Shown in pieces: positions 4,766 to 21,122 of a stretch of 64,000 bases of DNA. The notes below the pieces were generated by a model. It did not search any database, was not told where the DNA came from, and saw only the letters and a list, made by a program, of their open reading frames with translations. Position 1 is the stretch's first letter; the number at the start of each line of letters is the position of its first letter. This stretch comes from Gammaproteobacteria bacterium (GTDB lineage: Bacteria > Pseudomonadota > Gammaproteobacteria > Eutrophobiales > Eutrophobiaceae). The stretch covers positions 2,309,247 through 2,373,246 of the forward strand of contig OZ220714.1 in NCBI GenBank assembly GCA_965116585.1, written 5' to 3'. Both the position numbers and the translations under genes were made by a program.

Positions 4766-5245
4766 ATGCAAGGCAAAAATGAACAATATATCTCCGTTGC
4801 GATAACGGTCAACGGAGCGCTCATAGAGGCGGACATCCCCGCGCGGGAAAGCCTGGCGGATTTTCTGCGCCAGCAGGTGGGATTGACCGGCACCCACGTC
4901 GGCTGCGAACAAGGCGTCTGCGGCGCCTGCACGGTCAGGTTTGACGGTCGCATCGCCCGTTCCTGCCTGACCCTGGCGGCGCAAGCGCACGGCCACCGCG
5001 TCGACACCATCGAGGGGATGACCGACAGCGGCGAACTGGCCGCCTTGCAAGCGGCCTTCCTCAAACATAACGCCGCACAGTGCGGGTTCTGCACGCCCGG
5101 CATGTTGATTAGCGCAGCGGAATACCTGGCCGCCTCCGGCAGCGCCGAGCGGCACTTGATCCGGGAATTCCTGTCCGGCAATTACTGCCGCTGTACGGGC
5201 TACCATGCCATCGTCGATGCCATTGCAGAGGTTGCCGATGCCTGA
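4766..5245 (+). CDS. (2Fe-2S)-binding small subunit (CoxS-like)
   Basis: GCEQGVCGACTV...CGFCTPGM... are the two [2Fe-2S] cysteine clusters of Mo-hydroxylase small subunits. Confidence 0.9.
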   Translation: MQGKNEQYISVAITVNGALIEADIPARESLADFLRQQVGLTGTHVGCEQGVCGACTVRFDGRIARSCLTLAAQAHGHRVDTIEGMTDSGELAALQAAFLKHNAAQCGFCTPGMLISAAEYLAASGSAERHLIREFLSGNYCRCTGYHAIVDAIAEVADA

Positions 5246-7592
5246 TCCATTCATCGACGATTCGGGTCTTGCCAGACCGGACGCCGGTAGATTCATACAC
5301 GGCCGGGGTCGTTATCTTGATGATATCTCGCTCACCGGCATGCTCCACGTGGTTTATGTACGCAGCCCCTATGCCCATGCAAAAATCGACGGCGTTGATA
5401 CTTCAAAAGCACGGGAAGTCTGTGACGTCAGCCACGTTTTCACCGGACAGGACCTGGCCGCGGTCTGCCAACCCTGGACTGCGCAACTGACCAACCTGGG
5501 TGAGATGAAGACCGCGCCGCAGGCGGCCATGCCTACGGACATCGTCAGGTGGCAGGGTGAGCCGGTTGCCGCGGTGGTGGCGAATTCCAGGGCTATCGCC
5601 GAGGACGCGGCGGAACTGGTCGAGGTGGATTACACAGAATTACCGGCAGTCACGGATCCGGAGGCGGCGCGCAGCACAGATGCGCCCCTGGTCCATCCGC
5701 AACTGGGGACTAACGTTGCCTGGTCGATCAACATCGATACGGGTGAGGTGGAGGAAGCCATGGCCGCGGCCGACCTGGTGATAGAGAGGATGTTCGAGGT
5801 CAACCGGCAGACCGGCGTCACGCTGGAACCACGCGGCGCCATCGCCGACTACGATCCGTCCCGGCGTTACCTGACCCTGTACCTGACCAGTCAGGTGCCC
5901 CATATCCAGCGCTATATCTACGCCCGGCAACTGGGGCTGAAGGAAGCGAACGTGCGCATCATCTGTCCGGATATCGGTGGCGGCTTCGGGCTGAAACTGC
6001 ACGTGTATTCCGACGAGATCGCCACTGCCGCGATCAGCATGCTGATACGGCGGCCGGTAAAATTCGTCGCCGACAGGCTGGAATCGTTTGTGTCCGACAT
6101 CCATGCCCGCGGGCACCGGGTAAAAGCCCGCATGGGAGTTAATCGCGACGGGACCATCCAGGCCCTGGAAGTGGACGACCTGGCCGGCGCCGGGCCGTAT
6201 CTTATCCATCCCCGCACCAGTGTAATCGAACCCCTGCTGGTCGCCATCTGTACGCCGCTGGCCTACGACCTCAAGCACTACCGCGCGGTTGCCTCGCTGG
6301 TGTACCAGAACAAGGTCAGCACCGGCCAGTACCGCGGCGTGGGTATGCCCGTTGCCAGCCTGGTGGCGGAAGGGATGGTCGATGCGGCTGCCAGGGCGAT
6401 CGGTCTGGACCAGGTCGAGATCAGGAAACGCAACCTGTACCGGGACGACGCCTACCCCGTTACCGCTATCTCCGGTGAATATCTCGAATGCCTGTCCCAG
6501 CAGGCCTCCCTGGACAAGTTGTTGGGAATGATGGACTACGACGGGTTGCGCGAGGAACGTGACGCGAGGCGCAATCAAGACGCCTACAGGGGTATCGGTC
6601 TGGCCACCGTGGTGGAGGGAACGTCGCCCAGTCCCGCGCTGTATGCCGCGGGTGGCGCGCCGATCAGTTCCCGGGACGCCTGTACCCTGCGCCTGGAAGC
6701 GGACGGCAACATCTCCTGCGCCACCGGCCTGACCGACCAGGGCCAGGGCGGCGAGGCCGTGGTGACGTCCATCATCTCCGCGGTGCTGGGTGTGGCGCGG
6801 GACGAGATCAACGTCGTCATGGGCGATACCGCCACCACACCGTTCGGTGGCGGCACCTGGGCATCCAGGGGCACGGCCATCGCCGGCGAGGCGTGCCTGC
6901 TGGCGGCGAGGGAGATGCGGGAAAAGATACTGGAAGTGGCCGCCGTAGCTCACGAACAACCCGCGGACATACTCACCATTCGGGCCGGCAACATCATCAA
7001 CCTGGAGACGGACGAGCAGGTCTCATCTCTGGCGGCAATCGGCAACACCGTCCATTTCAACACCCACACCCTGCCCAGGGACCTGGAACCGGAACTGATT
7101 GTCACCCGCCATTACAGCCAGCGCGAACAACTCATGGTGTATGCCAACTGCGCGCTCGGCGTTTCCCTGGAAGTGGACGTGAACACCGGCCTGGTGACGC
7201 TGCACAAAGTCTGGGCAGTGGATGACTGCGGCCGCATCATCAACGAAAAACTGGTAGTGGAACAACTGCGCGGCAGCATCGTCCAGGGCATCGGTTCCAG
7301 CCTGTATGAAGAGTGCATCTACGACGCAGCCGGCCAGTTGCTGAACGGCAACATGTTCGAGTACCTGCTACCCATGGCCGGCGAAATGCCCGACATCGAG
7401 GTAGAACACATCGAAACCCCCACCAAAGCCACCCAACTAGGCGCCAAAGGCTGCGGCGAAGCCGGCATCATCGCCATCTGCGGCGCCATCATGAACGGGA
7501 TTAACGACGCGCTGGAGCCTTTCGGGGTGGAGGTGACTTCACAGCCGTTTACGCCGGAGAAGATATTGAGGGTGTTGGGGAGGGTTGGTTAA
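5238..7592 (+). CDS. Molybdopterin-binding large subunit of a xanthine dehydrogenase family enzyme (CoxL-like; probably not a form I CO dehydrogenase)
   Basis: ~785 aa with aldehyde oxidase/xanthine DH a/b hammerhead and Mo-binding regions. The start overlaps the coxS-like stop (ATGCCTGA). The form I CODH active-site signature AYRCSFR is not visible; GQYRGVG is found instead. The last 214 bp are duplicated at 20783..20996. Confidence 0.85.
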   Translation: MPDPFIDDSGLARPDAGRFIHGRGRYLDDISLTGMLHVVYVRSPYAHAKIDGVDTSKAREVCDVSHVFTGQDLAAVCQPWTAQLTNLGEMKTAPQAAMPTDIVRWQGEPVAAVVANSRAIAEDAAELVEVDYTELPAVTDPEAARSTDAPLVHPQLGTNVAWSINIDTGEVEEAMAAADLVIERMFEVNRQTGVTLEPRGAIADYDPSRRYLTLYLTSQVPHIQRYIYARQLGLKEANVRIICPDIGGGFGLKLHVYSDEIATAAISMLIRRPVKFVADRLESFVSDIHARGHRVKARMGVNRDGTIQALEVDDLAGAGPYLIHPRTSVIEPLLVAICTPLAYDLKHYRAVASLVYQNKVSTGQYRGVGMPVASLVAEGMVDAAARAIGLDQVEIRKRNLYRDDAYPVTAISGEYLECLSQQASLDKLLGMMDYDGLREERDARRNQDAYRGIGLATVVEGTSPSPALYAAGGAPISSRDACTLRLEADGNISCATGLTDQGQGGEAVVTSIISAVLGVARDEINVVMGDTATTPFGGGTWASRGTAIAGEACLLAAREMREKILEVAAVAHEQPADILTIRAGNIINLETDEQVSSLAAIGNTVHFNTHTLPRDLEPELIVTRHYSQREQLMVYANCALGVSLEVDVNTGLVTLHKVWAVDDCGRIINEKLVVEQLRGSIVQGIGSSLYEECIYDAAGQLLNGNMFEYLLPMAGEMPDIEVEHIETPTKATQLGAKGCGEAGIIAICGAIMNGINDALEPFGVEVTSQPFTPEKILRVLGRVG
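7379..7592 (+). repeat. Left copy of a 214-bp direct repeat (3' end of the CoxL-like gene); putative attL of the inserted island
   Basis: 97% identical to 20783..20996; the first ~130 bp are identical and about 6 mismatches cluster in the last 80 bp. Confidence 0.85.
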
Positions 7593-7733
7593 GCCGGGGG
7601 GTGATTAACCACGACTTGGCAGCGTTATCCTGGGAACTGGTAGTGAAGGCGGGACATTAGCGGCCGATACGAGAAGATTAGACCCGATGAATATTGTCCG
7701 TACGTAGGACAGCAAGATATATTGTGATGACGG

Positions 7734-8108
7734 CTACCATTCGCCCTTCAGAGTTGGTGATTGTCTGGTGTTGTCGTGGTTAACGGCCATTTCCAACTGT
7801 TCGACCAGATCAGGCAGATCGTTCTGTATAGTGTCCCAGAGAATATCGTCGTCGATATTGTGGTAACCATGAACAAGACGATGTCGCATGCCTATGATGT
7901 TATCGAAATCGATATACGCCAGTTCATGTCGTTTTGCTTTTGACACCTGATAGGCCGCTTCACACAGAATTTCTACAAGCCTTACCATTGCCAGCGAATA
8001 CATACGGTCGGAATCCAGATCCTCCCGAGTTTTCCCCTCGCTTAGCTCAATGGCTTCCTGCGCAGCATCCAGCATGTGCAATAGCCGGGTATTATCATCA
8101 ATGAACAT
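7734..8108 (-). CDS. hepT: HepT-like (DUF86) toxin of a HepT/MNT type II toxin-antitoxin pair
   Basis: RX4HXY motif (GMRHRLVHGYHNID), ~124 aa, immediately downstream of an MNT nucleotidyltransferase. Confidence 0.8.
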   Translation of the reverse strand: MFIDDNTRLLHMLDAAQEAIELSEGKTREDLDSDRMYSLAMVRLVEILCEAAYQVSKAKRHELAYIDFDNIIGMRHRLVHGYHNIDDDILWDTIQNDLPDLVEQLEMAVNHDNTRQSPTLKGEW

Positions 8109-8153
8109 AAGTTGTCACGACAGATTCTATCAGGCGGTTAGCAATTCAAGGTT

Positions 8154-8468
8154 TTATGGCGTGGACAAATCGACCAGAATATGTGCATCTTTCACCACCC
8201 TGTCCTGAATATATGGACTCAGATCCCCCATTGTGCGTAAATCAATTTTGCGTTGTCCAAAAAAGAATGACAGGGCTTTTTCCAACCCAACTACTCTGAA
8301 TAGTCCGACTCGAGCGCCAGGTCTGAACTTGACCAACAGATCAATGTCGCTGTCAGGACCGAAATCATTACGCAGCGCTGACCCATACACAGCCAGTTTA
8401 AGGATATCGTTGTTCCGGCAGAACGTTGTAATTTGTTTACTGTCTGGAAGAATCACTTGCGGGTTCAT
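8154..8468 (-). CDS. mnt: MNT nucleotidyltransferase antitoxin (cognate of HepT)
   Basis: GSX10DXD nucleotidyltransferase motif (YGSALRNDFGPDSDIDLLV), 104 aa, upstream of hepT in the same operon. Confidence 0.8.
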   Translation of the reverse strand: MNPQVILPDSKQITTFCRNNDILKLAVYGSALRNDFGPDSDIDLLVKFRPGARVGLFRVVGLEKALSFFFGQRKIDLRTMGDLSPYIQDRVVKDAHILVDLSTP

Positions 8469-8537
8469 GCCTTGCCTGTTTTCGGAATAGTAATATAAGG
8501 ATTTTAACCACGGAGTATTTTATTCGCAATGGACACC

Positions 8538-8656
8538 CTTGGATACCGCTGAGATCTGCTACCATTAACTCCACAAAAAAGAACAGCCGCGTTAGCGGCG
8601 GCTGTCGGGCCGTGGCTCCCTTCCTGTTATGACAAGGTATGGGCATACCAACGGTG
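8538..8656. repeat. Copy 1 of a ~120-170-bp intergenic repeat family (hairpin ACAGCCGC-GTTAGCG-GCGGCTGT preceded by an A-run, plus a TGTCATGACA-like palindrome)
   Basis: Near-identical to 26986..27157 and 13600..13729. Copy 1 diverges after ...CCAACGGTG and abuts the IS66-like insertion. Confidence 0.7.
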
Positions 8657-8794
8657 TTGTTACTTATAACTCAGTATAAGATTTAGCGCCGTGTCAAGGA
8701 AAAAACAGGAAAAATTGTAACTACTCACCCCCTCCCCACTAATTCTACCTGAATTTGCAACAAGGGGTGCTTGACATCATAGTTTTCTGGCGCT

Positions 8795-9472
8795 ATGGTA
8801 GGCGCCATGGGGCATGCGTATCTCGGTTCGAAAGCGACGACGGGGCTGTGCCAACCGTTGATTGCCATGATGCCGCCGCACAGTGTGTACATTGAGACAC
8901 ACTTGGGCGGCGGGGCGATTATGCGGCGCAAGCCGGCGGCGCTGCGCAACATTGGCATTGACATGGATGGGCGGGCGCTGTCGGCGTTCGAGTGTGCGTA
9001 TCCGGTGGAGCTGGTGCAGGGGTGTTGCCACCGGTTTTTAGCGGACTTTCCGTTCGACGGCACGGAGCTGGTGTACAGCGACCCGCCGTATTTGCAGCGT
9101 GCCCGCAAGTCGGGGCGGGGTTATCGGCACGACTACGAGGAGGGCGACCACGAGGCCTTGCTGGCGCTGCTCACGGGGTTGCCGTGTGCGGTGATGCTAT
9201 CGGGGTATCCCTCGGCGTTGTATGACGAGCGGTTGTGTGGCTGGCGCTGCGTGTCGCTGCAGGTGATGAATCAGGCCGGGGTGGTCACGGAGAAGGTATG
9301 GTTCAACTTTGCCCCGGACCGGGTGCACTGGGTGCGTTATGCGGGGCGCAACTTCACGCACCGCCAGCAGGTCAAGCGCAAGGCGGCGAGCTGGGGCCGG
9401 CGGTATCGGGAGTTGCCGCCGGCGGAGCGCCTGGCGGTGCTGGCGGCGATGATGGCGGTGGAGGCGGAGTGA
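8795..9472 (+). CDS. Dam-family N6-adenine DNA methyltransferase (cargo of the IS66-like element)
   Basis: HLGGGAIM (AdoMet-binding FxGxG) followed by the YSDPPY catalytic motif, the D12-class order. The stop lies 4 bp before the transposase start. Confidence 0.75.
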   Translation: MVGAMGHAYLGSKATTGLCQPLIAMMPPHSVYIETHLGGGAIMRRKPAALRNIGIDMDGRALSAFECAYPVELVQGCCHRFLADFPFDGTELVYSDPPYLQRARKSGRGYRHDYEEGDHEALLALLTGLPCAVMLSGYPSALYDERLCGWRCVSLQVMNQAGVVTEKVWFNFAPDRVHWVRYAGRNFTHRQQVKRKAASWGRRYRELPPAERLAVLAAMMAVEAE

Positions 9473-9476
9473 GGGC

Positions 9477-10976
9477 ATGGCGAGCGTGAACAAGACCTCG
9501 CTGCGCACGGAGTTCGAGGCCATCAAGACGCGCTTTGCGGCGCTGTGTGCGGAGGGCAAGCTGAGTCCCGAGGGCCGCGCCCTGTTCGAGGCGATGCTGC
9601 TGCTGTTCGAGTTGCTGCTGGCGGTGTTGATGGAGAAGGCCACGCCGAAGGGAACGCATAACTCGGGCCTGCCGAGTTCCCAAACCGGGCCGGACGAGAC
9701 CGCACGCCGGCAGACCGGCGCCAAGGGCAAGGGGCCGGACCACCGTGCCGCACGGGGCGAGTCAACCCGCGTGGTGGTCGAGACCCGCACCGCCGCGGTC
9801 ACCGAGTGCCGGGCCTGCGGGCGCGACCTCAAGGACCTCCACCCCAGCGGCCACGAGCGGCGCGTGAAGGTCGATATCGTCTTCGAGACAACCGAACTGA
9901 CCGTGAAGGCCGACATCAAGACCTGCCCGCGCTGCCGTACCGAGACCCGCGGGCCGTTTCCGGACACGATGCCGGGCCCCTTGCAGTACGGCCACGGCAT
10001 CGTGGCCTTCGCCACGCACCTGCTCACCGCACAGATGCTCTCACTGCGGCGCGCCGCTCAGACCCTCAAGGCGCTGACCGGGCGCACCATCGCCGAGGCG
10101 ACCTTGCTGGCTTGGCTCTCACGCCTGCACGAGGCCCTGGCCGAGTGGGAGGGGGCCGCCATTGAGCGCCTGCTCGCCGAGCCGGTGCTGCACGCCGATG
10201 AAACCGGCCTGCGCATCGACCGTAAGACCCACTGGCTGCACAGCGTCAGCGCCGGGAACCTGACCGTAAAGCGCGGCCACCGCAAACGGGGCCGCGAGGC
10301 CCTCAAGGACATCGGCATCGTCCCCCGCTATGGCGGTATCCTCGTCCACGACCGCTGGGCCAGCTACTTCGCCTGGGAGAACTGTGAACACGCCCTGTGC
10401 GGCAGCCACCTGCTGCGCGACCTGGCCTTCATCGAAGAGGCCCACGGCCATACCTGGGCAACACGTCTGGGCAACCTCCTGCTCACTACCTGCCGCACCG
10501 TGCGTGACCACCCGAACAAAGCGCTCAGCGACCCCGACTACAAAGCCCTGCGCACACGCTACCGCACCCTCCTCACACAGGCCAGACGGGAACTCCCCAC
10601 ACCCCCTCAGCGTCTCACCGGACAACGCGGACGTATCGCCAAATCCGATGCGCAAAACCTGCATGAAGCCCTCGTCAAGTATGAAACCGACGTGCTGCGC
10701 TTCGCCCGCAACCCCCAGGTCCCGTTCACCAATAACCGCGCCGAGCGCGACCTCCGCATGGCCAAGGTCAAGCAGAAAGTCGCCGGGTGCTTCCGTACCC
10801 CCCACTACGCCGCCGCCTACTGCCGCATCTCCAGCTACTTGCAGTCCATGGCGCTGCAGGGCTACAATCCCCTCACCGCCATCGAGATAGCGCTCAACGG
10901 CAATGCCGCCTCCATGGTAGAGAAACCACCCCAGAATAACCCGGACGACCAGGACCAGGATAAGGGGGGCGAGTAG
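9477..10976 (+). CDS. IS66 family transposase (TnpC-like: zinc ribbon plus DDE domain)
   Basis: CRACGRDL...CPRCRT zinc-finger; ...HADETGLRI...WLHSV... and ...FTNNRAERDLRMAKVKQKVAGCFRT... are IS66 TnpC signature blocks. Confidence 0.9.
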   Translation: MASVNKTSLRTEFEAIKTRFAALCAEGKLSPEGRALFEAMLLLFELLLAVLMEKATPKGTHNSGLPSSQTGPDETARRQTGAKGKGPDHRAARGESTRVVVETRTAAVTECRACGRDLKDLHPSGHERRVKVDIVFETTELTVKADIKTCPRCRTETRGPFPDTMPGPLQYGHGIVAFATHLLTAQMLSLRRAAQTLKALTGRTIAEATLLAWLSRLHEALAEWEGAAIERLLAEPVLHADETGLRIDRKTHWLHSVSAGNLTVKRGHRKRGREALKDIGIVPRYGGILVHDRWASYFAWENCEHALCGSHLLRDLAFIEEAHGHTWATRLGNLLLTTCRTVRDHPNKALSDPDYKALRTRYRTLLTQARRELPTPPQRLTGQRGRIAKSDAQNLHEALVKYETDVLRFARNPQVPFTNNRAERDLRMAKVKQKVAGCFRTPHYAAAYCRISSYLQSMALQGYNPLTAIEIALNGNAASMVEKPPQNNPDDQDQDKGGE

Positions 10977-11036
10977 TTACGAAAAATTTTAATTTGAGTA
11001 GTAATTTAGCTTCACCATGTAGCGCGAGGTGCAACT

Positions 11037-11297
11037 ATGGTAGCCTTTGAAAATCTCTTAAAAACAGAGTCCGATTTCTATGAACGTGAGCAACACAATC
11101 TTTTGGTAAAGTACCCCAACAGGGTTTTGTTAATACACGGTGATCATGTTGAAGGGGATTTTGATTCCGGGAATGCGGCCATATCAGAAGGAGTTCGCAA
11201 GTTTGGTACAGGTCCGTTTTTAGCCAGGAGAGCCGGGGAAGAAGAGCCTGTTTTTTTCAGTGCCAGCATTAACGTTGAGTCTGTAAAATGTCGGTAA
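11037..11297 (+). CDS. 86-aa conserved hypothetical protein (paralog A of the 23007..23267 protein)
   Basis: ~80% aa identity with the ORF at 23007..23267. The ~30 bp upstream (…GTAGCGCGAGGTGCAACTATGG) is also conserved in both copies. No recognisable domain. Confidence 0.6.
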   Translation: MVAFENLLKTESDFYEREQHNLLVKYPNRVLLIHGDHVEGDFDSGNAAISEGVRKFGTGPFLARRAGEEEPVFFSASINVESVKCR

Positions 11298-11352
11298 GAG
11301 TGCAACGGACAGCATTAATCTGGCGATACAGGAAGAATTGGCTGCCAGGTAC

Positions 11353-12447
11353 TTATTTGTTGGATTTCCTGCGATTGCAACCCTTGCATAGCATCTGACA
11401 GTTATCCTCGTTTGTCTTGCCACCCTCCGACCAAGGGGTGATGTGGTCAGCCTCCATGTCCACGATCTCAAACACCTTTGCGCATACCTTGCATATCCCC
11501 TTTTGAATCTCGAACGTCCTCTGCTTCATGGCATCGGAGAAGGCTCGGATGTTGAGATGTTTTTCCTCGCCAGTGAGGAGATACGGGTAGATACCCGCCT
11601 TCTTCGTCACATCGTCGTCGATCATCAGGCGGCCAACCTCGACTTCCAGTCTTTCGGGATCCAGTTTCTCGTTCTTGAGTTGCTTGTAAAGCCCACCCCA
11701 ATCCACTCCCTTCATTTGTGTGCGGTAGTTCGGAAAAACCGCCTCCACCCGGTTGATCACCGCCTGGAAGTGACTCCACAAAGCAGTTGCGGTCTTGTCG
11801 TGCTGATGCACGGCCATATACTGCTCGACCGCCTGGTCCTCGTCCTTGATCCATTGGATTGCGGTTTCGAGGTACTCCTGGCGGTCCGCCCTCCCATTCA
11901 CATAACGGCTGCCGATTGCATAAGCCGGGCAGGTGGCCCCCTTCCTGCTGAAATGCCGCTTTGCATCGGATACCCACGGGCCAGCATAAACCGCGTTCCG
12001 CAACTCCTGGTCGGTCAGCCGCTCGCCTGCAATATTGATGATCCTGAACCAAGCCAGCTTTTCGCTGGCGCTTCCCTCGCAGACATAAACCTGCAACGTG
12101 TAGTTAAGAATCCGATCCTGCTCGTCATCTTGCAGGTTATGGAAATACCGCCCGTCAAGGGAGTAGTCGCCTTCCACATACTGTGCGACTGAGATCGTGC
12201 GCTGCTGGCCGTCGATGACCTCATATGTTCCGTCTTCGCGTAGTGCCCAATACATCACATTGAGCGGAAAGCCCTTGTTGATCGTCTCGATCACAGCATC
12301 GCGTTGCTTGTCCTTATAGACGAACTCGCGCTGAAACGGCGGGCGGATGTCGAGTTTACCGCCATAGCCGCGCACCCCGCCTTCGCCGTCGTCGATGTAG
12401 CCCTTCACAAGGTCGCGGACAGTGACTTTCGTCAGAGCAATTTTCAT
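11353..12447 (-). CDS. DUF262 (ParB-like, DGQQR) N-terminal domain fused to a C-terminal HNH endonuclease
   Basis: EVIDGQQRT is the DUF262 motif. The C-terminus HITPWSEGGKTNEDNCQMLCKGCNRRKSN is an HNH motif. A 4-bp overlap with the upstream MTase gene indicates co-transcription. Confidence 0.75.
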   Translation of the reverse strand: MKIALTKVTVRDLVKGYIDDGEGGVRGYGGKLDIRPPFQREFVYKDKQRDAVIETINKGFPLNVMYWALREDGTYEVIDGQQRTISVAQYVEGDYSLDGRYFHNLQDDEQDRILNYTLQVYVCEGSASEKLAWFRIINIAGERLTDQELRNAVYAGPWVSDAKRHFSRKGATCPAYAIGSRYVNGRADRQEYLETAIQWIKDEDQAVEQYMAVHQHDKTATALWSHFQAVINRVEAVFPNYRTQMKGVDWGGLYKQLKNEKLDPERLEVEVGRLMIDDDVTKKAGIYPYLLTGEEKHLNIRAFSDAMKQRTFEIQKGICKVCAKVFEIVDMEADHITPWSEGGKTNEDNCQMLCKGCNRRKSNK

Positions 12448-13505: not shown

Positions 13506-13599
13506 GGGTTTGCTCCCGAACCAAGCCCGTTGTCGACGACTAGCTCCCGAGATTTATACCGCCCCAAACTTCGATACTCTACTACACAATTCCCCAAAA

Positions 13600-13729
13600 A
13601 AAGAACAGCCGCGTTAGCGGCGGCTGTCGGGCCGTGGCTCCCTCCTGTCATGACAAGGCATGGGCACACCAACGGTGAGGTTGAGCAAAGTCTATTATAA
13701 CACCCGACACTGTGTCAATGATTTGAATC
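13600..13729. repeat. Copy 2 of the intergenic repeat family
   Basis: ...CCCCAAAAAAAGAACAGCCGCGTTAGCGGCGGCTGTCGGGCCGTGGCTCCC...GTCAATGATTTGAATC is almost identical to 27020..27157. Confidence 0.7.
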
Positions 13730-13832
13730 GGCCTTGCGGTTGCTTTGTTTCCTCTCTCATCTTCCCTCATCTGCTGTTATTAACTTGTAAATCACGGTAT
13801 AATCTATTGTAATCCTTTTCTGGAATCTGTAT

Positions 13833-14837
13833 ATGTACTCAAATCGAATTTCATTCTACAAACAACTGGAGGATGCCAGACAGTCTAAGGTGCTGGCGTA
13901 TATCACAGGTGACCGGCGCCAATTAGAGACAAAAATGGCTGCGGAGGTTCTAGACTTCTTTGTCCATCATCTTGACAAGATTGGTGTTGTTGGAAAGCTT
14001 TCTCTATTTCTTTATACCCGTGGTGGGGATACTTTATCAGCTTGGAGCCTCGTTAATTTGTTACGTGCTTTTTGCGATAAGCTAGAGATTATCATTCCTT
14101 CAAAAAGCCATAGTGCCGGAACGTTAGTTTGTCTGGGAGCGGATATATTAGTTATGACTAAACAAGCCACTTTGGGTCCTATTGATCCAAGTGTAAATAC
14201 ACCTCTGAATCCTCAAGTTCCGGGTGGACAACCTATGGCAAATGTACCAGTGAGTGTTGAAGATATTAACGCTTTCCTTGAGCATGCCCGAGAAACAGTT
14301 GGTGTGGGCACTCAACCAAACATCGGTACTGTCTTTGATAGACTTGCGCAAAATGTTCATCCTCTCGTTCTTGGAAGCGCCTTTCGAGCGCGCTCACAGA
14401 TTCGCATGTTGGGAAGCAGGCTCCTTGCTAACCACATGGATAATGAAGATGGTATGAATAAAATCCTGGATTTTTTGTGCAGCGAATCTGGCAGCCATGA
14501 CTACACAATAAACAGAAGAGAAGCTCGAGATGATCTATCCTTACCTATTGAGAAACCAAGCTGGGAACTTTACGAAATAATCAAAACTCTGTATGACGAT
14601 ATTGCCTCAGAATTAGAACTGACTACCGCCTATGATCCAAACTTGGTCTTGGGAGGTTCACAAACTAAGAATTATTCATTTACGCGAGCACTGATTGAGA
14701 GCGCGGGGGGTGGTTCAGATGCTTTCTTAAGTGAGGGGGTTCTCAGTCGCCAACAGATTCAAATTCAGCCAGGTGTTGTAGGAGATGCTATCAACGACCA
14801 ACGTCAGTTTGAAGGATGGAGACATCGTGATGCCTAA
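13833..14837 (+). CDS. SDH-family / ClpP-fold (S49-like) serine protease homolog
   Basis: ...LSLFLYTRGGDTLSAWSLVNLLRAF...PSKSHSAGTLVCLGADILVMTKQATLGPIDP... is a ClpP/crotonase-fold protease core with a Ser nucleophile context. Confidence 0.55.
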   Translation: MYSNRISFYKQLEDARQSKVLAYITGDRRQLETKMAAEVLDFFVHHLDKIGVVGKLSLFLYTRGGDTLSAWSLVNLLRAFCDKLEIIIPSKSHSAGTLVCLGADILVMTKQATLGPIDPSVNTPLNPQVPGGQPMANVPVSVEDINAFLEHARETVGVGTQPNIGTVFDRLAQNVHPLVLGSAFRARSQIRMLGSRLLANHMDNEDGMNKILDFLCSESGSHDYTINRREARDDLSLPIEKPSWELYEIIKTLYDDIASELELTTAYDPNLVLGGSQTKNYSFTRALIESAGGGSDAFLSEGVLSRQQIQIQPGVVGDAINDQRQFEGWRHRDA

Positions 14838-15075
14838 CATCGATAATCCACATCTATCTGTCAAATTAACCCAAGCTAGCGGTATGACCCCGAGCATAGC
14901 AGAAGACACAATCGCGACCGATAACCTTTCTGCTATGATGAAAAATGCTATTGTCATTTTTCAGTCAACACTTACTTTAATTGACTCTCCTTCCCAATAT
15001 CAGAGTGAAGATGGGACTGCTGAAAGGGCTAAAGATTTCGATACAAGTACAAAGCCTCAGATATCAGAGGGGTAG
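14830..15075 (+). CDS. Small hypothetical protein (81 aa), start overlapping the protease stop
   Basis: ORF only; ATG at 14830 overlaps 14837. No known domain; it may be spurious. Confidence 0.25.
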   Translation: MPNIDNPHLSVKLTQASGMTPSIAEDTIATDNLSAMMKNAIVIFQSTLTLIDSPSQYQSEDGTAERAKDFDTSTKPQISEG

Positions 15076-15085
15076 GTATCTCTGA

Positions 15086-15299
15086 CTAGTACTCTTTCAA
15101 TTTAATTCTGACCGGTTAGCTTGTCATAAGCGGTTCACTCCAACGATACTGACCAGCCCAAAGAAACGGTACCAGATGTAAAGTGAGGGATCAGCATTAT
15201 GCCGCCTTTTTTCTTTCTTTTCGATATCTGTCAGCAAACGCCACCACTCGATTAATCTTGACCCGTCGATCAATCAGAATTAAATTGAAAGAGTACTAG
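15086..15299. mobile_element. MITE-like element: 25-bp perfect terminal inverted repeats flanking ~164 bp
   Basis: CTAGTACTCTTTCAATTTAATTCTG (15086..15110) is the exact reverse complement of 15275..15299. It sits between two convergent gene ends; the right inverted repeat overlaps the stop codon of the NACHT gene. Confidence 0.5.
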
Positions 15300-18200
15300 T
15301 GTGGCAAACGAATCTCGCGGAATGCCTCACCGAGCTGAAGTGCCACACTTCGCCGGTCACCCATGTCGACAAGTATGTCGAGGATATGTAAGAACTTCTG
15401 AGCCAAAGCCAGCGCCATTGGCGCGTCACGATGTACAAAGTGTTGTATCATCTCCGCTATGCGCTCCGGGATGAACGTTCCATACCAACCCTTTAGGTTG
15501 TCGGGTCCATCGCCGATAATTGCGAGCACCTGATCCGCGAAGGCTTCGGCTGGGTAGTCGGCCCTGGCTCGCTCACAGAGCGTCAAGAACGGGTCCATAA
15601 CGGAAGCTGCCCATCCGCCAGCGCGAACGAAACGATCAATCAGCGGCAGGATGCGGCTGATTTCGGACCAGTCGCCGTTGACGTAGCGAGTGGCCAGGTC
15701 CGCGCGTTCGACTGAGACAAACATTAACGTGCGAACAAGTTTGGGCAGATCGAAGCCATAGAGATTTCCTCTCCGGTAGCCGTTTTTCTGTAAGGCTGGG
15801 GCTTGCAGAAGCCGGTCAAGACAAAGGTCCAGCGTCGCGACTGCATCCTCTGGGACTACCGGCGCATCGTACACGTAGGAGCAGATGTAAGTATCTACGA
15901 ATGGAGAGAGAAGATCCCAGCAATTGTCACCCTCGATCCCCAATATTGGGTCGAGGAAACGGGCCTGAAAATCACTAAGAGGTAGAAGGCCGACCACCTG
16001 GCCGAGTGCCGACCCGAGGGCGTGGGTCCATTCAAAGCTCTCGGTTGCCGAACGATCTCGACGTCCGGGCTTCATCCAAGGCGGCACATTCTTCTGATTG
16101 GTCCAGTCGAGAACCCCTGTCAGAAAGTTGAGGAGTGCGCTTTTTGCGCTACTGCTTAGGGCCCCGTCGAAGGGGATGCGCTCCAAAATTTCCGCCGCCC
16201 GCTTTGAGTACCAATAGACATCCGGTTCACCCCATACTTCATCTGCGTCGACCGTATCATCTGCATCGTACTCTACAAATCTTTGACACCCACTTCGACC
16301 CTTCCCGGGTTTGACCTTCATCCAGGCCGGAGGCGGTAGCGGAAGGGGCACCCATCCGCTACCGTTTTGATAGAACGCAACCGCCACATCGACCGCCGCT
16401 TGCGCTTCACTTGACGAGTGGAGCGCTTCATTGTGTTGCCTAAGTTGGCCACGCGGCCGCGGAGGAATATGACAGAGCGAAAATGCCAAGATCAGCGCGG
16501 CCCAAGTGAGCTTGGGGTCCTTAGACCAAAGCCTGCACGCTTCTTCGAGCGCAGCTAACGAAACGGCTTCGAGTGGATGCGCAATCAGCCCAAGGAGGTC
16601 GTGAGCTGTGCCCTGTTCGGCTGTGCCTTCGTGGAGGTCCGCTGCGAAGCCTCGCGCTACGTAGATCGCGTGGTGCCATGGGATGACGGAACCAGGCGGC
16701 CACGTCTGACCAGGCTTTTCTGGTAAACGGATAGCGCGTGCCAGGACATCTCGAGACCACTCAAGGTTTTCTTGTGTGCATCGCTCGCGAAAGTTAAGCG
16801 TGATTGCCGCGGTAGCGGCGACTGCGCCACGACGCATACCCGATAGTTCTTCTTCGTCCTCGTCGTCCAGGTGCCTGAACAAGTCGCGGGAGTCCGCTTC
16901 CTTGGCCAATGCTATGGCCCCTTCGACCGTGTAGGTATCGCTCAGTGTCTTCTTCTCGAATGACTTGGAGGCCCAAGTCCAAAGGTTTGTCTGGGCAAGA
17001 CGCTTAGACGCCCCTTCGGCTCTGGTAACGTTTTCAGGCTTAGCAGCAGAAGGACTAACATGGACAACCGCAACCTGGTCCGAATCCTCTTTGGTGCGGT
17101 AAACCTGATAGTTTTCCGGGTCAACTAACTCTGCATATTCCAAGGCCTGAGATGTAAGGTCCTCGCGTGCCTCCAGAATGTCGCGGTGCTCTTCGTACTG
17201 GTAGGGCAAATCGTTCTTAAAATTGAGGACCGCTTCGCGGACCCGGTGGCGGAGCGGTGCCGTCCCAAAGAAAAACATAGGTACCATCCAGCTAAGCTGT
17301 TTGTTACGGACTGGTCTGGCATTTGCTGCTTGGATCGCCTCAATGTGGTGATTATCGTTGCTATTCGTAAAACCGATCAGGTTATTCGTTGACGAAAAGT
17401 CTTGTACCATTCGGTTACGGTCTGCAGTCAACAGTCGTTGTGAGGTAACGAGGGGAAAAGTCGCTTCGCACACCGTCTCGGTATCGAGCGCAAGCATCGA
17501 CGCGATGCCCAGGATGGCGATGCATTCATTCCCTTCTACGATTTGCTGGATCAGTTCATCTACGGCGCGGTTACGCTCAAGCTCGGTGAAGCACCACTCT
17601 TCAAGCGCCATAAACCCGCAACCGATGGCTGCCGGCGCCCACGTTGAACGAAACCAAAGATATTCCCGATCAGTGCCCCAGAACTTTTGGGTGTCCCAGG
17701 GAAACGTCAGTTCGAGTGGTACGGGGGTGCCGCGACGGTCGGGTGAGTGACGATGCAGTTGTCGCCACGCAATCATCGCGTGATTGCAGAGCTCTCGAAG
17801 AAGCCGCAGTGCGTCGTTGGGCGATGATTGGAAAAGCGAGTGAAAGGGCTCTCGAAGCGGTGAAGCATTCGGGAAGCATCGGTGGTCGTCGTGGACCGAC
17901 AGCCTGTTCCAGTCGTGGTGGCTGAAATTGCCGACGGTTCGTAGGGAAAGCGCCCCCGAAAGCGCGATTTCATCTTGACGCGAGCGCTCGGCGTCCGGCT
18001 TGGCAAGAGCTGCTTTGCGCCAGTCAGCCGCATCATGTTGTTCCTGCTTCTCGCGGGCAACTCGCTCGTCCGGAAGCTCCCTTCGCAGGAACGCCAGTGA
18101 AAGCTTAACCACCGGCTGGGGTAATGACTGGGCGAGGACGGGTGAGAAGGTGATGATGTCATGAAATACCTCGTCGCGGATTTGCTTTGAGCTGATTGCT

Positions 18201-20680
18201 CGCTGCAAATAGTTGGCTGCAAGGGCAGGCTCGGCTCTCGATGATCTCAGTAGAAGCTGTCCAAGAGATTTTCGGAAAGCATCCAGGTCGGATACCTTCG
18301 CCCAGTAAGCAGAGTTCTCATCAGGCCCATCGGCGGTACTGATCGCGTCGATGGCGGCGAGCCAGGTAGCGCACTGTTGCAGAAGAGCGCGGGACGTTGG
18401 GTTGCGAATGTCGGCCAGGATATTCTGCCAGACATCGAAGACAGCCACGATCTCCGGATAAAGCCTCTGCGGAATGCCTGAAATGCGTCGAAGGATAAAG
18501 TCGATTAGGCGACGCCACGCGGAGAGGTCGGAAGGCCATCCGAGAAAATAGGCAATCCGTTGTCGTTGCTCTAGTGGATACTCCCCAGAAAGGATCATTT
18601 CATTCGGGGTAGTCTTCTCAGCCTGAAACCAGACGAGCGTCTTCCTGAAAAGGTAGAAGTCATTGGCAAAGACGGCCATCGCGAATTGATCCTCATCAAC
18701 TTCAAACCTCGCAGTTCCGAAAGGACCCACCAGCCAGGCTCGCAACCATTGTGATCTTAGACCTGAATCCCCAGCTTGGGCGAGGTACACTGGCCAGTCT
18801 GCTCCATGTGCATACTCCCATTGGGAAGCGAGTTCGACGACGCGCGCGACCGCTGGTGGTTCGCCGCAGTCCTTGATCACTTCTATCCATTGTGGCCCGC
18901 GATCGGCAAGGACGTGGAAGAAGGCCCATTCAAAGAAGATATCGTGGGCGAAACGGACGGAGATCCCTTCGCGGACATTCAGGAGTATGCCGTCCGATCT
19001 CAGGTCATTGATGTATGTAACGGAGTTGAGTTGGCCAAGGCCAATCGGTTGGCTAAGTTGACGGGCATGAACACGCGCTAAGTTGAGCAGCGCGCGTTGG
19101 CGTTCAATTGCGCGTTGGCCTGTTTCATTGTAGCCGCCCCGTCGCCACCAATTCTCGATCAGATCGATTTCAGATTGTGGAGCGAATGTCGAAGTGCTGG
19201 GGTCGGCTACGTAACCCTGGTTCAGCACCTTCGCGAAAAAGGGTCGTCGGACAATCTCTATCACCTGCGCTGGTCCAAACAGAAGTGGCTTGAGGTGTGG
19301 TTTGGCTTTTGCAAGCGTGTCTGCTTCGTCGTCGCTCAGCTGACCAACGACAAGCGTCTCGACCTTCAGCGCATCAAGGAAGTTACCCAACCAATTACGA
19401 AGCATTTCAATGCCGGTGTCGCGAAGGGAGACAACGACGCGCCAGTTATCGAGTAACGGTGACTCCACGATGGTGCGGACCACATCAATGATGATGGGCT
19501 GGTGCTCATTATTGATGCGATCAATTGCATCAATGAAGAGTATGGGAGTACCGGCAGCCGCAATCTCCAGGAGAAGGTGCTCCAAGGAGGTACCCGAAAG
19601 ACCCTGCGAGGCAGCGTAGCTGGTCCAGCTGGTGCCTTCGAGTTGTTCGGCTTTGAGGAAGAGGACCGGTCCGTGTTCTAACGCGCGCTGTAATGTCCGC
19701 TTTACTACAACTGATTTACCGCTTCCGGGTAGACCGCGCACCTGGACGACACGAGCAGTTGTGAGTTTTGCGTCCAGTTCCTCAAGGAGTGAGGCTCGGT
19801 CGAGCTTCATGCCTCCGATATCATCCGGGATGAGGGTTGCATAGCTCATTGCAAGCTCTGTCAGCTTGTCGAGGTCGGGGCGCAATGAGATCGAGCCGCA
19901 AAGGCGTGCGATTGGTGAAATCAAGCGCACAAGCCGCGCGCGATCAAATTGGCCTGACTTGCCTGCTGATGCGCGGGCTAGTTGAACGAACCGCGACCAG
20001 ATGAGAGGCGCCTTGGCTGTATCATCGGGCGCAAGGCAATCTCGAATGCGATTAATGGCATTAGGGGGATCCGTGGCGCCTTCACGAAGGAAGTCGAACT
20101 GAATGAGCACGAAGTGCGCGAGAAAATGATGCACTTCCTCAGATGTGCATGGTGTCCCCTTCGATTCTTCCAGTAAGGCAACGATGTCATTTTTGACGGC
20201 TTTGATGCCGCCCCTGGCATTGCCCCCCTTTGCAAAGCGAGCGTCGAAATGGTCTGCCGTCAGACTTTCACGAGCCCAATCACAAAGGGTCTTGAGCGCT
20301 CGCTCTTTGGCAGGGGAGATCGTGCCAACTGCAGCGCCGTAACGGTCGGCACTGACGCGGAAGTCAGACTTTCCAAGAGTAGCCCAACTGTCGAGAATGA
20401 TGCCGCGAAAGTGTTTGTTCGTTATTGCATTGCTGATCGTGAGCGAACGCTTTACTTGTAGGCTGAGGCGGGCAGGCTTTTTTTCGGCGTCTTCAAAGTC
20501 AATAATTACATCATCGAGAGGTTCGCCGAAGTCGCGCTGCTGAACTGACACACTGACAACGGTTCGATCATCCATGCCGGGGGCATACTCTTCGGCAAGA
20601 AGCGCGGTGAGATAAAACGCAGCCACATCTCCTTCAAAGGTGAAACCCTCGCCGCCAGCGAGTTCAGGTGATTGTTTCAT
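15296..20680 (-). CDS. 1794-aa NACHT/STAND-type P-loop NTPase with an N-terminal PD-(D/E)xK-like nuclease domain and a long helical C-terminal region (Avs / bacterial-NACHT-like antiphage protein)
   Basis: Walker A VRGLPGSGKSVVV. NACHT-type Walker B PILFIDAIDRI (hhhhDxhD). N-terminal GFTFEGDVAAFYL...VIIDFED...LSLQVKRS resembles Cap4/Mrr-like D...(E/Q)xK nucleases. About 1300 aa of the C-terminus is alpha-helical and W/L-rich. Confidence 0.6.
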   Translation of the reverse strand: MKQSPELAGGEGFTFEGDVAAFYLTALLAEEYAPGMDDRTVVSVSVQQRDFGEPLDDVIIDFEDAEKKPARLSLQVKRSLTISNAITNKHFRGIILDSWATLGKSDFRVSADRYGAAVGTISPAKERALKTLCDWARESLTADHFDARFAKGGNARGGIKAVKNDIVALLEESKGTPCTSEEVHHFLAHFVLIQFDFLREGATDPPNAINRIRDCLAPDDTAKAPLIWSRFVQLARASAGKSGQFDRARLVRLISPIARLCGSISLRPDLDKLTELAMSYATLIPDDIGGMKLDRASLLEELDAKLTTARVVQVRGLPGSGKSVVVKRTLQRALEHGPVLFLKAEQLEGTSWTSYAASQGLSGTSLEHLLLEIAAAGTPILFIDAIDRINNEHQPIIIDVVRTIVESPLLDNWRVVVSLRDTGIEMLRNWLGNFLDALKVETLVVGQLSDDEADTLAKAKPHLKPLLFGPAQVIEIVRRPFFAKVLNQGYVADPSTSTFAPQSEIDLIENWWRRGGYNETGQRAIERQRALLNLARVHARQLSQPIGLGQLNSVTYINDLRSDGILLNVREGISVRFAHDIFFEWAFFHVLADRGPQWIEVIKDCGEPPAVARVVELASQWEYAHGADWPVYLAQAGDSGLRSQWLRAWLVGPFGTARFEVDEDQFAMAVFANDFYLFRKTLVWFQAEKTTPNEMILSGEYPLEQRQRIAYFLGWPSDLSAWRRLIDFILRRISGIPQRLYPEIVAVFDVWQNILADIRNPTSRALLQQCATWLAAIDAISTADGPDENSAYWAKVSDLDAFRKSLGQLLLRSSRAEPALAANYLQRAISSKQIRDEVFHDIITFSPVLAQSLPQPVVKLSLAFLRRELPDERVAREKQEQHDAADWRKAALAKPDAERSRQDEIALSGALSLRTVGNFSHHDWNRLSVHDDHRCFPNASPLREPFHSLFQSSPNDALRLLRELCNHAMIAWRQLHRHSPDRRGTPVPLELTFPWDTQKFWGTDREYLWFRSTWAPAAIGCGFMALEEWCFTELERNRAVDELIQQIVEGNECIAILGIASMLALDTETVCEATFPLVTSQRLLTADRNRMVQDFSSTNNLIGFTNSNDNHHIEAIQAANARPVRNKQLSWMVPMFFFGTAPLRHRVREAVLNFKNDLPYQYEEHRDILEAREDLTSQALEYAELVDPENYQVYRTKEDSDQVAVVHVSPSAAKPENVTRAEGASKRLAQTNLWTWASKSFEKKTLSDTYTVEGAIALAKEADSRDLFRHLDDEDEEELSGMRRGAVAATAAITLNFRERCTQENLEWSRDVLARAIRLPEKPGQTWPPGSVIPWHHAIYVARGFAADLHEGTAEQGTAHDLLGLIAHPLEAVSLAALEEACRLWSKDPKLTWAALILAFSLCHIPPRPRGQLRQHNEALHSSSEAQAAVDVAVAFYQNGSGWVPLPLPPPAWMKVKPGKGRSGCQRFVEYDADDTVDADEVWGEPDVYWYSKRAAEILERIPFDGALSSSAKSALLNFLTGVLDWTNQKNVPPWMKPGRRDRSATESFEWTHALGSALGQVVGLLPLSDFQARFLDPILGIEGDNCWDLLSPFVDTYICSYVYDAPVVPEDAVATLDLCLDRLLQAPALQKNGYRRGNLYGFDLPKLVRTLMFVSVERADLATRYVNGDWSEISRILPLIDRFVRAGGWAASVMDPFLTLCERARADYPAEAFADQVLAIIGDGPDNLKGWYGTFIPERIAEMIQHFVHRDAPMALALAQKFLHILDILVDMGDRRSVALQLGEAFREIRLPH

Positions 20681-20782
20681 CGCTAGCTTGAGTCTCGTGA
20701 GTAAACATCAGTCGTGGGAGCGATTGAGATAGATTATGCGCCGAGAATGGACTGCGGGCAATGAAGGATTAAATTCATAACT

Positions 20783-20996
20783 CGGCGAAATGCCCGACAT
20801 CGAGGTAGAACACATCGAAACCCCCACCAAAGCCACCCAACTAGGCGCCAAAGGCTGCGGCGAAGCCGGCATCATCGCCATCTGCGGCGCCATCATGAAC
20901 GGGATTAACGATGCGCTGGAACCGTTCGGGGCGGAGGTGACTTCACAGCCGTTTACGCCGGAGAAGATATTGAGGGTGTTGGGGAAGGTTGGTTAG
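20783..20996 (+). repeat. Right copy of the 214-bp direct repeat; orphan 3' fragment of the CoxL-like gene; putative attR
   Basis: Encodes MPDIEVEHIETPTKATQLGAKGCGEAGIIAICGAIMNGINDALEPFGAEVTSQPFTPEKILRVLGKVG, the last 68 aa of the CoxL-like protein with 3 substitutions. Confidence 0.85.
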
Positions 20997-21122
20997 TTCC
21001 CGGGTTTGCTTACCTGCTCCTTTTGCTGCCTAACCTTCTGGGTGCGGCACAACGTGTTGATTTTTCCTGGCCATTTTGGACTCCATGAGTTTATTTTAGT
21101 TGAATAACCACAATTTTTTGCT

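Follow-up and report, generated by a model that had tools for sequence, protein, structure and literature searches.

Two stacked alleles of a defense hotspot as a possible origin of a duplicated coxL 3′ end in an uncultured gammaproteobacterium

Islands that use an integrase to target the 3′ end of a protein-coding gene carry a replacement for that end, as seen with SGI1 at trmE and SXT/R391 at prfC. The core defense hotspots cDHS1 and cDHS2 of P. aeruginosa are flanked by conserved genes; mobility genes are often missing from hotspots of this kind, for which recombination between homologous flanks has been suggested as the means of exchange (PMC10250203). How defense hotspots are assembled without mobility genes is an open question, and such hotspots have been termed enigmatic (PMC10250203). 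In Rhs, CDI and T6SS effector-immunity loci, incoming modules that anchor in a conserved gene upstream displace their predecessors, whose 3′ regions persist as orphans; this C-terminal displacement with its orphan 3′ arrays has been attributed to homology-facilitated illegitimate recombination (HFIR; PMC5361080). HFIR has been described in transformable Acinetobacter, S. pneumoniae and P. stutzeri, and also in E. coli conjugation (PMC3240628).

We analyzed a 64-kb stretch of DNA, referred to as the window, in which an earlier note had proposed a genomic island bracketed by direct repeats of a coxL-like 3′ end (Table 1). Alignment and repeat search showed that the two copies are identical at 208 of 214 nt and self-BLAST of the window recovered the repeat with E = 6e-101, in agreement with the ~97% identity claimed. 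All six mismatches (repeat positions 130, 139, 142, 150, 204 and 214; window positions 7508, 7517, 7520, 7528, 7582 and 7592) fall within the final 85 nt and the initial 129 nt are perfect, as the description of an identical start of ~130 bp with distal mismatches had it. The left boundary of the repeat is sharp, and homology stops at the stop codon, which is TAA in the left copy and TAG in the right. We conclude that the duplicated coxL 3′ end is real. A 795-aa ORF has its true 3′ end in the left copy, and the database call of 784 aa for this ORF equals P0122. The encoded protein lacks the canonical CODH active-site motifs and has AYRGIGL instead, and the gene is the last of a coxG-coxM-coxS-coxL-type operon, a context seen in the conspecific loci L020 and L021. 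Exact-protein look-ups for the 795-aa CoxL, P0122 and the restriction enzyme returned no record.

Table 1. Features of the hypervariable interval and its flanks, in window positions.
Feature	Position	Strand	Basis and remarks
CoxL-like Mo-hydroxylase large subunit	5205-7592	+	Pfam Ald_Xan_dh_C, MoCoBD_1, MoCoBD_2
Left repeat copy	7379-7592	+	Functional 3′ end of coxL; private R793 allele
D5 spacer	7625-7737		81% identical to D5′ (26631-26743); contiguous with HepT/MNT homology in L025
HepT/MNT toxin-antitoxin pair	HepT 7734-8108; MNT 8154-8468	-	Pfam
Conserved small element, copy 1 (earlier "MITE")	8537-8708	-	Repeat searches, comparison with L025
IS66-family insertion sequence	8709-10988	+	Inverted repeats GTAACTACTCACCCCC at 8717-8732 and 10965-10980; 8-bp target duplication GAAAAATT at 8709-8716 and 10981-10988; MTase fragment 8795-9472; transposase 9477-10976
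D1 repeat with 86-aa ORF (11037-11297)	11004-11306	+	88% nt identical to 22974-23275
Type II R-M pair	11353-13505	-	Pfam; PADLOC REase_II, 458 bits; DUF262/GmrSD_N-HNH restriction enzyme 11353-12447; EcoRI-like adenine methyltransferase 12444-13505
Conserved small element, copy 2	13597-13729	-	99% identical to copy 3
SDH-type Clp-fold serine protease	13833-14837	+	Profile searches
216-nt MITE-like element	15085-15300		Perfect 27-bp terminal inverted repeats, CTAG flanks
1794-aa STAND-type ATPase	15296-20680	-	PADLOC, NCBIfam; NTPase region Avs4-like
ATPase-module upstream region, cut short at seam	20681-20782	-	Comparison with L022 and L024
Right repeat copy, orphaned coxL 3′ fragment	20783-20996	+	Alignment to left copy
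RosmerTA-like pair	RmrA 21197-22276; candidate toxin ORF 22340-22786	+	Pfam (HTH and M78 peptidase in RmrA); PADLOC RmrA, 147 bits
D1′ repeat with 86-aa ORF (23007-23267)	22974-23275	+	Repeat search, self-BLAST
GmrSD-like (DUF262) protein	23361-25322	+	Matches HEC-05 candidate defense family
220-aa ORF	25898-26560	+	No Pfam, PADLOC, NCBIfam or PHROGs match
Decayed second framework copy	26631-27157		Contiguous with AAA_14-MFS in L025; D5′ 26631-26743, HepT remnant ~26745-26790, small element copy 3 26986-27157
Right flank	27203-29808		Homology with conspecific genomes resumes here; two TTACCTTGTATTTTTGAC boxes at 27249 and 27282; AAA_14/DUF4143 ATPase 27312-28670 (+); MFS transporter 28678-29808 (-)

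Alignment of the repeats had been suggested as a way to find the crossover point of an attachment site. Among conspecific strains, the coxL tail shows one difference in the first 130 nt and four to eight in the last 84, and because the mismatch gradient between the two copies matches this polymorphism, it does not mark an att crossover. The right copy carries the K793 allele of the intact conspecific coxL, which is the only one of its amino-acid alleles that conspecifics share (their V790A is a different site). The 10 nt behind the right copy (20997-21006) are of the post-stop type found behind intact coxL in conspecifics, and the sequence behind the left copy (7593-7624) is private. Mismatch density against L020 and L021 showed a mosaic throughout coxL with no clear step that would mark a recombination switch. 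A third, degenerate copy of the coxL tail, which tandem att-type integrations would be expected to leave, was not detected at the right edge of segment B (20997-26630): local alignment gave scores no higher than shuffled sequence did, and blastn-short had no match.

We compared the interval with 17 related loci (L001-L010, L019-L021 and L025-L028). Ten related species and three conspecific contigs carry coxL as the conserved left flank and AAA_14, MFS, hydrolase or RidA genes on the right, with differing content between, including HicAB or REase-ARP cargo. In the conspecific L020 and L021 (97% nt identity in both flanks), the coxL stop is followed by one small HicAB cassette and homology to the window resumes only at 27203, leaving ~19.6 kb (7593-27202) that is strain-specific and contains the second coxL tail. 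Other species rejoin the window at 27243, 28679, 30103 or 31390. GC content in the hotspot is 0.43-0.55 compared with 0.58-0.65 in the core, and low GC runs on to ~29 kb. The related metagenome contig L019, which is 97% identical across coxL, has a full-length coxL with the post-stop sequence of the right-copy type, followed by an 875-nt cassette of its own and then by sequence equal to the window from 21007 on, with 89% identity in the RmrA region. Since full coxL is followed there by the RmrA region, the 13.4-kb unit (7379-20782) has truly been inserted or deleted with respect to L019. The expectation of an empty site in relatives was thus borne out by L019 save for the 875-nt cassette, but not by L020, L021 or the other species, which rejoin at 27203 or beyond; likewise, an insert bracketed by the repeats holds relative to L019, whereas foreign DNA extends past 20996.

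The fixed core-gene flanks, the low GC and a defense content that varies highly between close relatives are features that this locus shares with cDHS1 and cDHS2. Encoded in the window are a type II R-M pair, an Avs4-like STAND ATPase, RmrA, a HEC-05/GmrSD protein and HepT/MNT, a mixture of TA, R-M, STAND and type IV restriction systems like that of the two P. aeruginosa hotspots; constant flanking genes and variable content are combined with enrichment in known or candidate anti-phage systems. There are also differences: the host is uncultured and, to judge from MAG names, probably a sponge-associated gammaproteobacterium; a Mo-hydroxylase gene forms the left flank in place of a site linked to a tRNA or tmRNA; and the locus retains a physical scar of one building event in the form of an orphaned flank-gene fragment.

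A native framework is present twice. In sister genomes L025-L028 coxL, D5, HepT/MNT, small element, AAA_14 and MFS follow one another contiguously in this order, and the window contains this framework once intact (7593-8708) and once decayed (26631-27157). The intact copy, including HepT/MNT beside coxL, is orthologous to the native DNA that follows coxL in these genomes, indicating that the claimed island begins, on its left, with ordinary chromosomal DNA. Divergence between the paired segments is uneven, with 6 of 214 positions differing in the coxL tail and 21 of 113 in D5 (Fisher p = 2e-6), and the two halves of the small element are 95% and ~60% identical between copies. Such heterogeneous divergence is as expected if deeply diverged hotspot alleles adjoin a homogenized core gene.

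We propose, with a probability of about 0.55, that the interval from the coxL stop to AAA_14/MFS is an integrase-free hypervariable defense hotspot of this uncultured gammaproteobacterial clade, that HFIR has stacked two alleles of it in this genome without a site-specific recombinase, and that the coxL-tail duplication is best read as a recombination scar rather than as an att site belonging to a self-mobile island. Allele 1 (7593-20782) would comprise D5, HepT/MNT, the small element, IS66, an 86-aa ORF, the R-M pair, the SDH protease and the STAND ATPase, and allele 2 (20997-27202) the RosmerTA-like genes, an 86-aa ORF, GmrSD/HEC-05, the 220-aa ORF and the decayed D5′-TA-small element. The two would lie head to tail with the 214-nt fragment as the orphaned leading edge of allele 2; the fragment would be the 3′ end of a coxL copy which recombination with conspecific DNA either shifted downstream or introduced. 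We infer that the exchange was anchored by homology at one end, in coxL or, in the mirror version, in AAA_14/MFS, and closed by an illegitimate joint at 20782|20783 at the opposite end.

Evidence for such a joint comes from the ATPase module. L022 and L024 share ~45 nt more of the ATPase upstream region, which the window lacks, and because the seam shortens this region relative to other genomes it probably marks the illegitimate joint. With L022 as a proxy for the donor sequence, microhomology at the seam is ~2 nt. A donor strain with allele 1 alone was not found, the nearest HepT being 81% identical. The coxL-tail/ATPase junction is known from one assembly: L029, which is of the same strain from another sample, stops before it, an exact RmrA look-up returned only a 2.5-kb same-strain contig that also ends before it, and a junction 28-mer had no match in viral contigs.

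The arrangement resembles displacement in Rhs, CDI and T6SS loci, where a new module arrives, without an integrase, together with its own version of the upstream gene's 3′ end, and the former 3′ end is shifted downstream and kept with its partners. Here the intact coxL is followed, further on, by an orphan 3′ end with the post-stop sequence and RmrA region that lie behind the intact coxL of L019. The displaced ends in those loci are variable toxin domains with cognate immunity genes, so stacking has a selective rationale, whereas the tail duplicated here belongs to a metabolic enzyme gene, is almost the same in both copies and has no evident function, and it is defense cargo that is stacked. 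[quoted passage not shown] If correct, the locus keeps a dated scar of one step in hotspot assembly, two alleles joined at an orphaned core-gene fragment, which favors one-ended homologous plus illegitimate recombination over site-specific integration. HFIR is known from experiments to be rare, and this counts against the reading.

As a by-product, the 214-nt repeat with its 129-nt perfect block now allows RecA-dependent loss of the 13.4-kb unit. The same homology exceeds the usual minimal length for RecA, and the unit could have arrived by a single RecA crossover in the coxL tail from a circularized conspecific fragment that ran from coxL −214 through the ATPase upstream region, the circle having formed by illegitimate circularization or by pop-out from a similar stacked locus. 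This Campbell-type event would give the topology observed, and L019 could be the unoccupied or popped-out state. Sequence alone cannot separate it from HFIR. An extra step would be needed to form and deliver a circle that has no mobility or replication gene, and no other occupied site was found among the 17 related loci; we consider it unlikely. We regard it as quite unlikely that the unit is a recombinase-independent mobile defense cassette that uses the 214-nt coxL piece as a homology "att", popping out as a RecA-generated circle, transferring between conspecific symbionts and re-integrating by a single crossover that restores coxL, although, if true, it would provide a general way to build and shuffle integrase-less defense hotspots.

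It is also improbable that the coxL tail and framework were duplicated in tandem in situ, each copy then gaining, losing and decaying cassettes independently. Tandem duplications are common and the coxL tail, D5, TA and small element are collinear in both copies, but the paired segments are unequal (97% for the coxL tail, 81% for D5 and the two very different small-element halves), many additional events would be required, and allele 2 stands beside a full coxL in L019 with an RmrA region at 89%, indicating that it is independent in the population.

An island whose attP contains the coxL 3′ end, with an integrase that was lost or acts in trans from outside the window, is just as improbable. 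As in the SGI1 and SXT/R391 type, direct repeats of a gene 3′ end bracket the unit and restore coxL, the gene is intact at the left junction and the space between is filled with accessory cargo, and both the near-empty site of L019 and the identical proximal block of the repeat agree with such an island. Absent here are an integrase beside the att site, short att cores, conserved element DNA at att and recurrence at the same site in many genomes. Searches with Pfam, NCBIfam, PHROGs and PADLOC found no tyrosine or serine recombinase in the long ORFs of the 64-kb window, as the earlier note had observed, nor any recombinase in the ORFs of 7.6-27.3 kb, and the IS66 transposase is the only recombinase-type gene in the 64 kb. 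Neither end of the unit behaves as an element end, since native chromosomal framework adjoins the would-be attL and the attR-side junction truncates a cargo module. Furthermore, HicAB, the 875-nt cassette, REase-ARP and segment B, which sits behind a coxL stop, all entered the same spot without duplicating coxL. A second coxL tail was present in 0 of 17 related loci within the flanks fetched. Megablast of 7379-27240 against plasmids and phages gave no match, and the mismatch gradient follows the polymorphism of the population. On its own, a direct repeat of a gene 3′ end is no evidence for an integrase-driven island.

An assembly artifact, in which two coexisting strain haplotypes were concatenated by way of the coxL tail they share or by a chimeric read, is very improbable. 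In its favor, the 3.8-Mb contig is of metagenomic origin, conspecific strains carrying different alleles are found together in one sample (L020 and L021, ERZ25070917), and the two coxL tails differ by about as much as those of separate strains do. Against it, the paths of a haplotype bubble would meet again at the right flank and not at coxL −214, the specific joint of ATPase upstream region and coxL −214 would have to exist in reads, and the left and right parts each run collinearly into both flanks.

Returning to the cargo that the stacked alleles would carry, Pfam, PADLOC and other profile searches recovered the HepT/MNT pair, IS66-like element, DUF262-HNH nuclease and SDH protease listed in the earlier note. 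One of its two MTases is the EcoRI-like enzyme and the other is a C-terminal fragment inside the IS66-family element, and its NACHT NTPase is the giant STAND-type ATPase. The IS66-family element is a simple secondary insertion; we rejected IS66-mediated mobilization or a composite transposon, the element being single-copy with its own intact 8-bp target duplication. Of the Avs4 models, the ATPase matches the NTPase part alone, and Pfam gave no match; the 216-nt MITE-like element abuts and overlaps its stop codon. Relatives at 73-87% aa identity occur across phyla, with 89-90% nt identity in unrelated contexts elsewhere, which marks the ATPase as a single-gene module spreading horizontally; a conserved partnership with the SDH protease was rejected because of these unrelated contexts. 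Downstream of RmrA, the ORF in second position is a candidate RosmerTA toxin by its location. The small element, part of the native framework, bears in copy 1 a terminator hairpin and a promoter-like box on the minus strand; its fold was no more stable than that of shuffles (z = −0.8), and Rfam at E ≤ 10 gave chance snoRNA matches only. At gathering thresholds, Rfam reported tRNA-Gln only across the whole window. A TA promoter predicted from the sequence (TTGCGA-N17-TAAAAT, minus strand, ~8490-8530) is shared, and the same promoter, read likewise, fronts the HicAB cassette of L021.

The 214-nt direct repeat reported in the earlier note was borne out: self-BLAST aligned 7379-7592 with 20783-20996 at 208 of 214 positions (E = 6e-101), with homology starting abruptly and ending at the stop codon (TAA in the left copy, TAG in the right copy). 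A coxL-like gene has its true end in the left copy; the active-site region of this gene carries AYRGIGL and not a canonical CODH motif. The six mismatches fall at repeat positions 130, 139, 142, 150, 204 and 214, and the identical proximal block had been read as the signature of an att site. Conspecifics show the same contrast, each with a single difference in the nearly invariant first 130 nt and 4-8 in the last 84, so the gradient tracks population polymorphism and marks no att crossover.

The repeats had also been taken as the bounds of an integrase-less island, and this placement did not hold. Between ~7.6 kb and ~29 kb GC content is 0.43-0.55, lower than the 0.58-0.65 of the neighbouring genes. 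A scan with one genome per species yielded ten related loci, all from uncultured Gammaproteobacteria MAGs with CoxL at 84-90% amino acid identity; at these related-species loci, homology to downstream window positions resumes within 100-200 nt of the coxL stop, at points listed in the table. Two conspecific contigs, L020 and L021, are 97% identical in nucleotide sequence to the window over 1-7595 and 27203-33101, and a HicAB cassette alone separates coxL from the AAA_14 ATPase gene in L021 and from the MFS gene in L020. Because conspecifics carry only this cassette between the same flanks, ~19.6 kb (7593-27202) is strain-specific. This stretch runs past 20996, and the second coxL tail lies in its middle, not at its edge. 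L020 and L021, two strains from the same sample (ERZ25070917), differ in that one of them has cleanly lost the AAA_14/DUF4143 gene (equivalent to window 27342-28580); even the hotspot framework turns over within one population.

Features of the locus and points at which homology resumes in related species (window coordinates)
Feature	Position	Strand	Remarks
coxL-like Mo-hydroxylase large-subunit gene	5205-7592		Pfam Ald_Xan_dh_C, MoCoBD_1/2
D5 repeat	7625-7737 vs 26631-26743		81% identical
Small element, three copies	8537-8708, 13597-13729, 26986-27157	minus	
D1 repeat with 86-aa ORF	11004-11306 vs 22974-23275		88% identical
1794-aa STAND-type ATPase	15296-20680	minus	matches NTPase part of Avs4 models only
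Resumption after coxL stop	27243+ (L009), 27388+ (L008)		related-species comparison
Resumption after coxL stop	28679+ (L003, L005)		related-species comparison
Resumption after coxL stop	30103+ (L010)		related-species comparison
Resumption after coxL stop	31390+ (L006, L007)		related-species comparison

Repeat families tie the claimed island to the DNA on its right. Four sister genomes, reached through HepT homologues, give the native order behind coxL, which is coxL - HepT/MNT - AAA_14 - MFS in L026-L028 and coxL - REase-ARP - D5 - HepT/MNT - small element - AAA_14 - MFS in L025; the latter is contiguous with window 7608-8662 and, separately, with 27009-29785. Given this order, the framework is present twice in the window, intact at 7593-8708 and decayed at 26631-27157, where D5', a 37-nt HepT remnant and the small element are left. 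What had been claimed as the island's left end is thus ordinary chromosomal DNA belonging behind coxL. The coxL tails differ at 6/214 positions and the adjacent D5 spacers at 21/113 (Fisher p = 2e-6), a disparity that is expected where hotspot alleles of deep divergence adjoin a homogenised core gene.

One contig that is 97% identical to coxL, L019, was recovered by scanning metagenomes for a lineage-specific 24-mer. There, intact coxL is followed by post-stop sequence of the right-copy type, an 875-nt cassette and the equivalent of window 21007-21390, the start of the RmrA gene (89% identical). In the empty site envisaged in the earlier note, coxL would run directly into the DNA right of the repeat: L019 joins coxL to the 21007+ equivalent across its cassette, and L020 and L021 rejoin the window only at 27203+. 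Right-copy-type post-stop sequence and K793, as in the orphan fragment, also occur in L020 and L021, whereas R793 and the post-stop sequence of the left copy are private to it; the remaining variable sites of the tail are assorted among strains. On these grounds, the orphan fragment looks like the coxL end of the common population type, parted from its gene.

The NACHT NTPase of the earlier note was present as an NTPase, found as a giant STAND-type ATPase without a Pfam domain. It shares 73-87% amino acid identity with proteins across phyla (Desulfurispirillum, Acidobacteria, Burkholderia, Pseudomonas, Halomonas and Nitrosomonas), a conservation unusual for a defence gene. Three contigs (L022-L024) carry the module at 89-90% nucleotide identity over window 15295 to ~20784 among wholly different neighbours, and this single-gene module, which spreads horizontally, seems to be highly mobile. 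In the window, the module ends exactly where the coxL fragment starts (20782/20783). Since the upstream homology common to L022 and L024 runs ~45 nt beyond that shared with the window, the module is cut off here, and the seam has the look of an illegitimate joint, not a conserved element end. At the other end of the gene, a 216-nt MITE-like element (15085-15300; perfect 27-bp terminal inverted repeats, CTAG on both sides) sits exactly at the stop codon, where homology to other gene copies ends.

The cargo between the repeats was largely as listed earlier: HepT/MNT, an IS66-family element, an SDH-type protease and a DUF262-HNH restriction enzyme with an EcoRI-like methylase. The second methyltransferase of that list is a fragment inside the IS, itself a clean secondary insertion (inverted repeats 8717-8732 and 10965-10980; 8-bp target site duplication GAAAAATT). 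This 225-aa ORF (8795-9472) lies upstream of the transposase within the IS (8717-10980), and over residues 90-223 it matches type II and Dam-like DNA methyltransferases in their C-terminal part; it is a fragment of a passenger gene. GC content of the IS is high (0.65-0.68), in contrast to its surroundings. The IS66 transposase is the only one present. As the earlier note had it, no tyrosine or serine recombinase was detected, and no excisionase either, among all ORFs of the region and the long ORFs of the whole 64-kb window (Pfam, NCBIfam, PHROGs, PADLOC). At megablast level, 7379-27240 matched no known plasmid or phage. The right end of segment B (20997-26630) bears no third coxL-tail vestige; therefore this segment and the relatives' cassettes at the same spot (HicAB, 875-nt, REase-ARP) were gained without coxL duplication.

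We conclude that the feature is a core-gene-flanked defence hotspot with an orphaned 3' fragment of displacement-type recombination, both of known kinds. We suggest that two hotspot alleles are stacked in this genome, either of which could be the resident one, and that the coxL fragment is the front edge of the downstream allele, left orphaned. The arrangement could have arisen by one-ended homologous recombination with DNA of a conspecific strain, completed by an illegitimate joint at 20782/20783; such homology-facilitated illegitimate recombination is the most economical route. The topology matches that of Rhs, CDI and T6SS displacement arrays, in which a new module, anchored in the conserved gene upstream, shifts older 3' regions downstream (PMC5361080). 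The locus also agrees with a proposed exchange of core defence hotspots, many of which have no mobility genes, by way of their conserved flanks (PMC10250203). RecA-mediated Campbell insertion of a circularised fragment is a less likely alternative that gives the same product. An artefact of the single metagenomic assembly is unlikely, as this specific joint would not arise naturally from one. The earlier reading as a site-specific island, its integrase lost or acting in trans, stands insofar as the repeat brackets a real insertion/deletion unit; a protein-gene att site is disfavoured by the lack of a recombinase in the 64-kb window, the native framework at the left end, the truncated module at the right seam, the cassettes gained without coxL duplication and the polymorphic origin of the mismatch gradient. 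The unequal divergences and L019 speak against in-situ duplication. The locus has kept a scar of the way in which defence hotspots are built.

Several smaller features were observed. The small element (~130-170 nt) carries, on the minus strand, a TGTTATAAT box, ~95 nt, a strong terminator hairpin and a T-run; it belongs to no Rfam family, its fold shows no unusual stability, and a small RNA gene, not a MITE, is one possible reading of it. Its copies 2 and 3 are 99% identical, and the L025 copy (L025 5091-5131), which occupies the homologous site with the TA promoter on one side and AAA_14 on the other, shares 93% identity, with neighbouring genes at just 82-84%. The two copies of the 86-aa ORF (11037-11297 and 23007-23267; 73/86 residues identical, no family match) each adjoin a DUF262/GmrSD_N-type nuclease gene, one per hotspot allele, and may encode a conserved partner or regulator. 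MNT/HepT (window ~8469-8536, minus strand) and HicAB (L021 ~13000-13076) are preceded by one and the same promoter-like sequence (TTGCGAATAAAA...TAAAAT); different toxin-antitoxin cassettes are exchanged behind this shared promoter at one chromosomal spot. Two copies of ACCTTGTATTTTTGAC (27249-27264 and 27282-27297) immediately precede the AAA_14/DUF4143 ATPase gene, of which they are probably an operator; they are conserved across species, being present also in L008, L009, L020 and L021. REP-like palindromes ATTCCCGCGCAGGCGGGAAT (ATTCCC-N8-GGGAAT), whose form recalls Neisseria dRS3 repeats, are intergenic at 3133-3175, 37488-37530 and ~29910-29930, and a pair of them occupies the coxL-downstream spot in the related-species locus L004.
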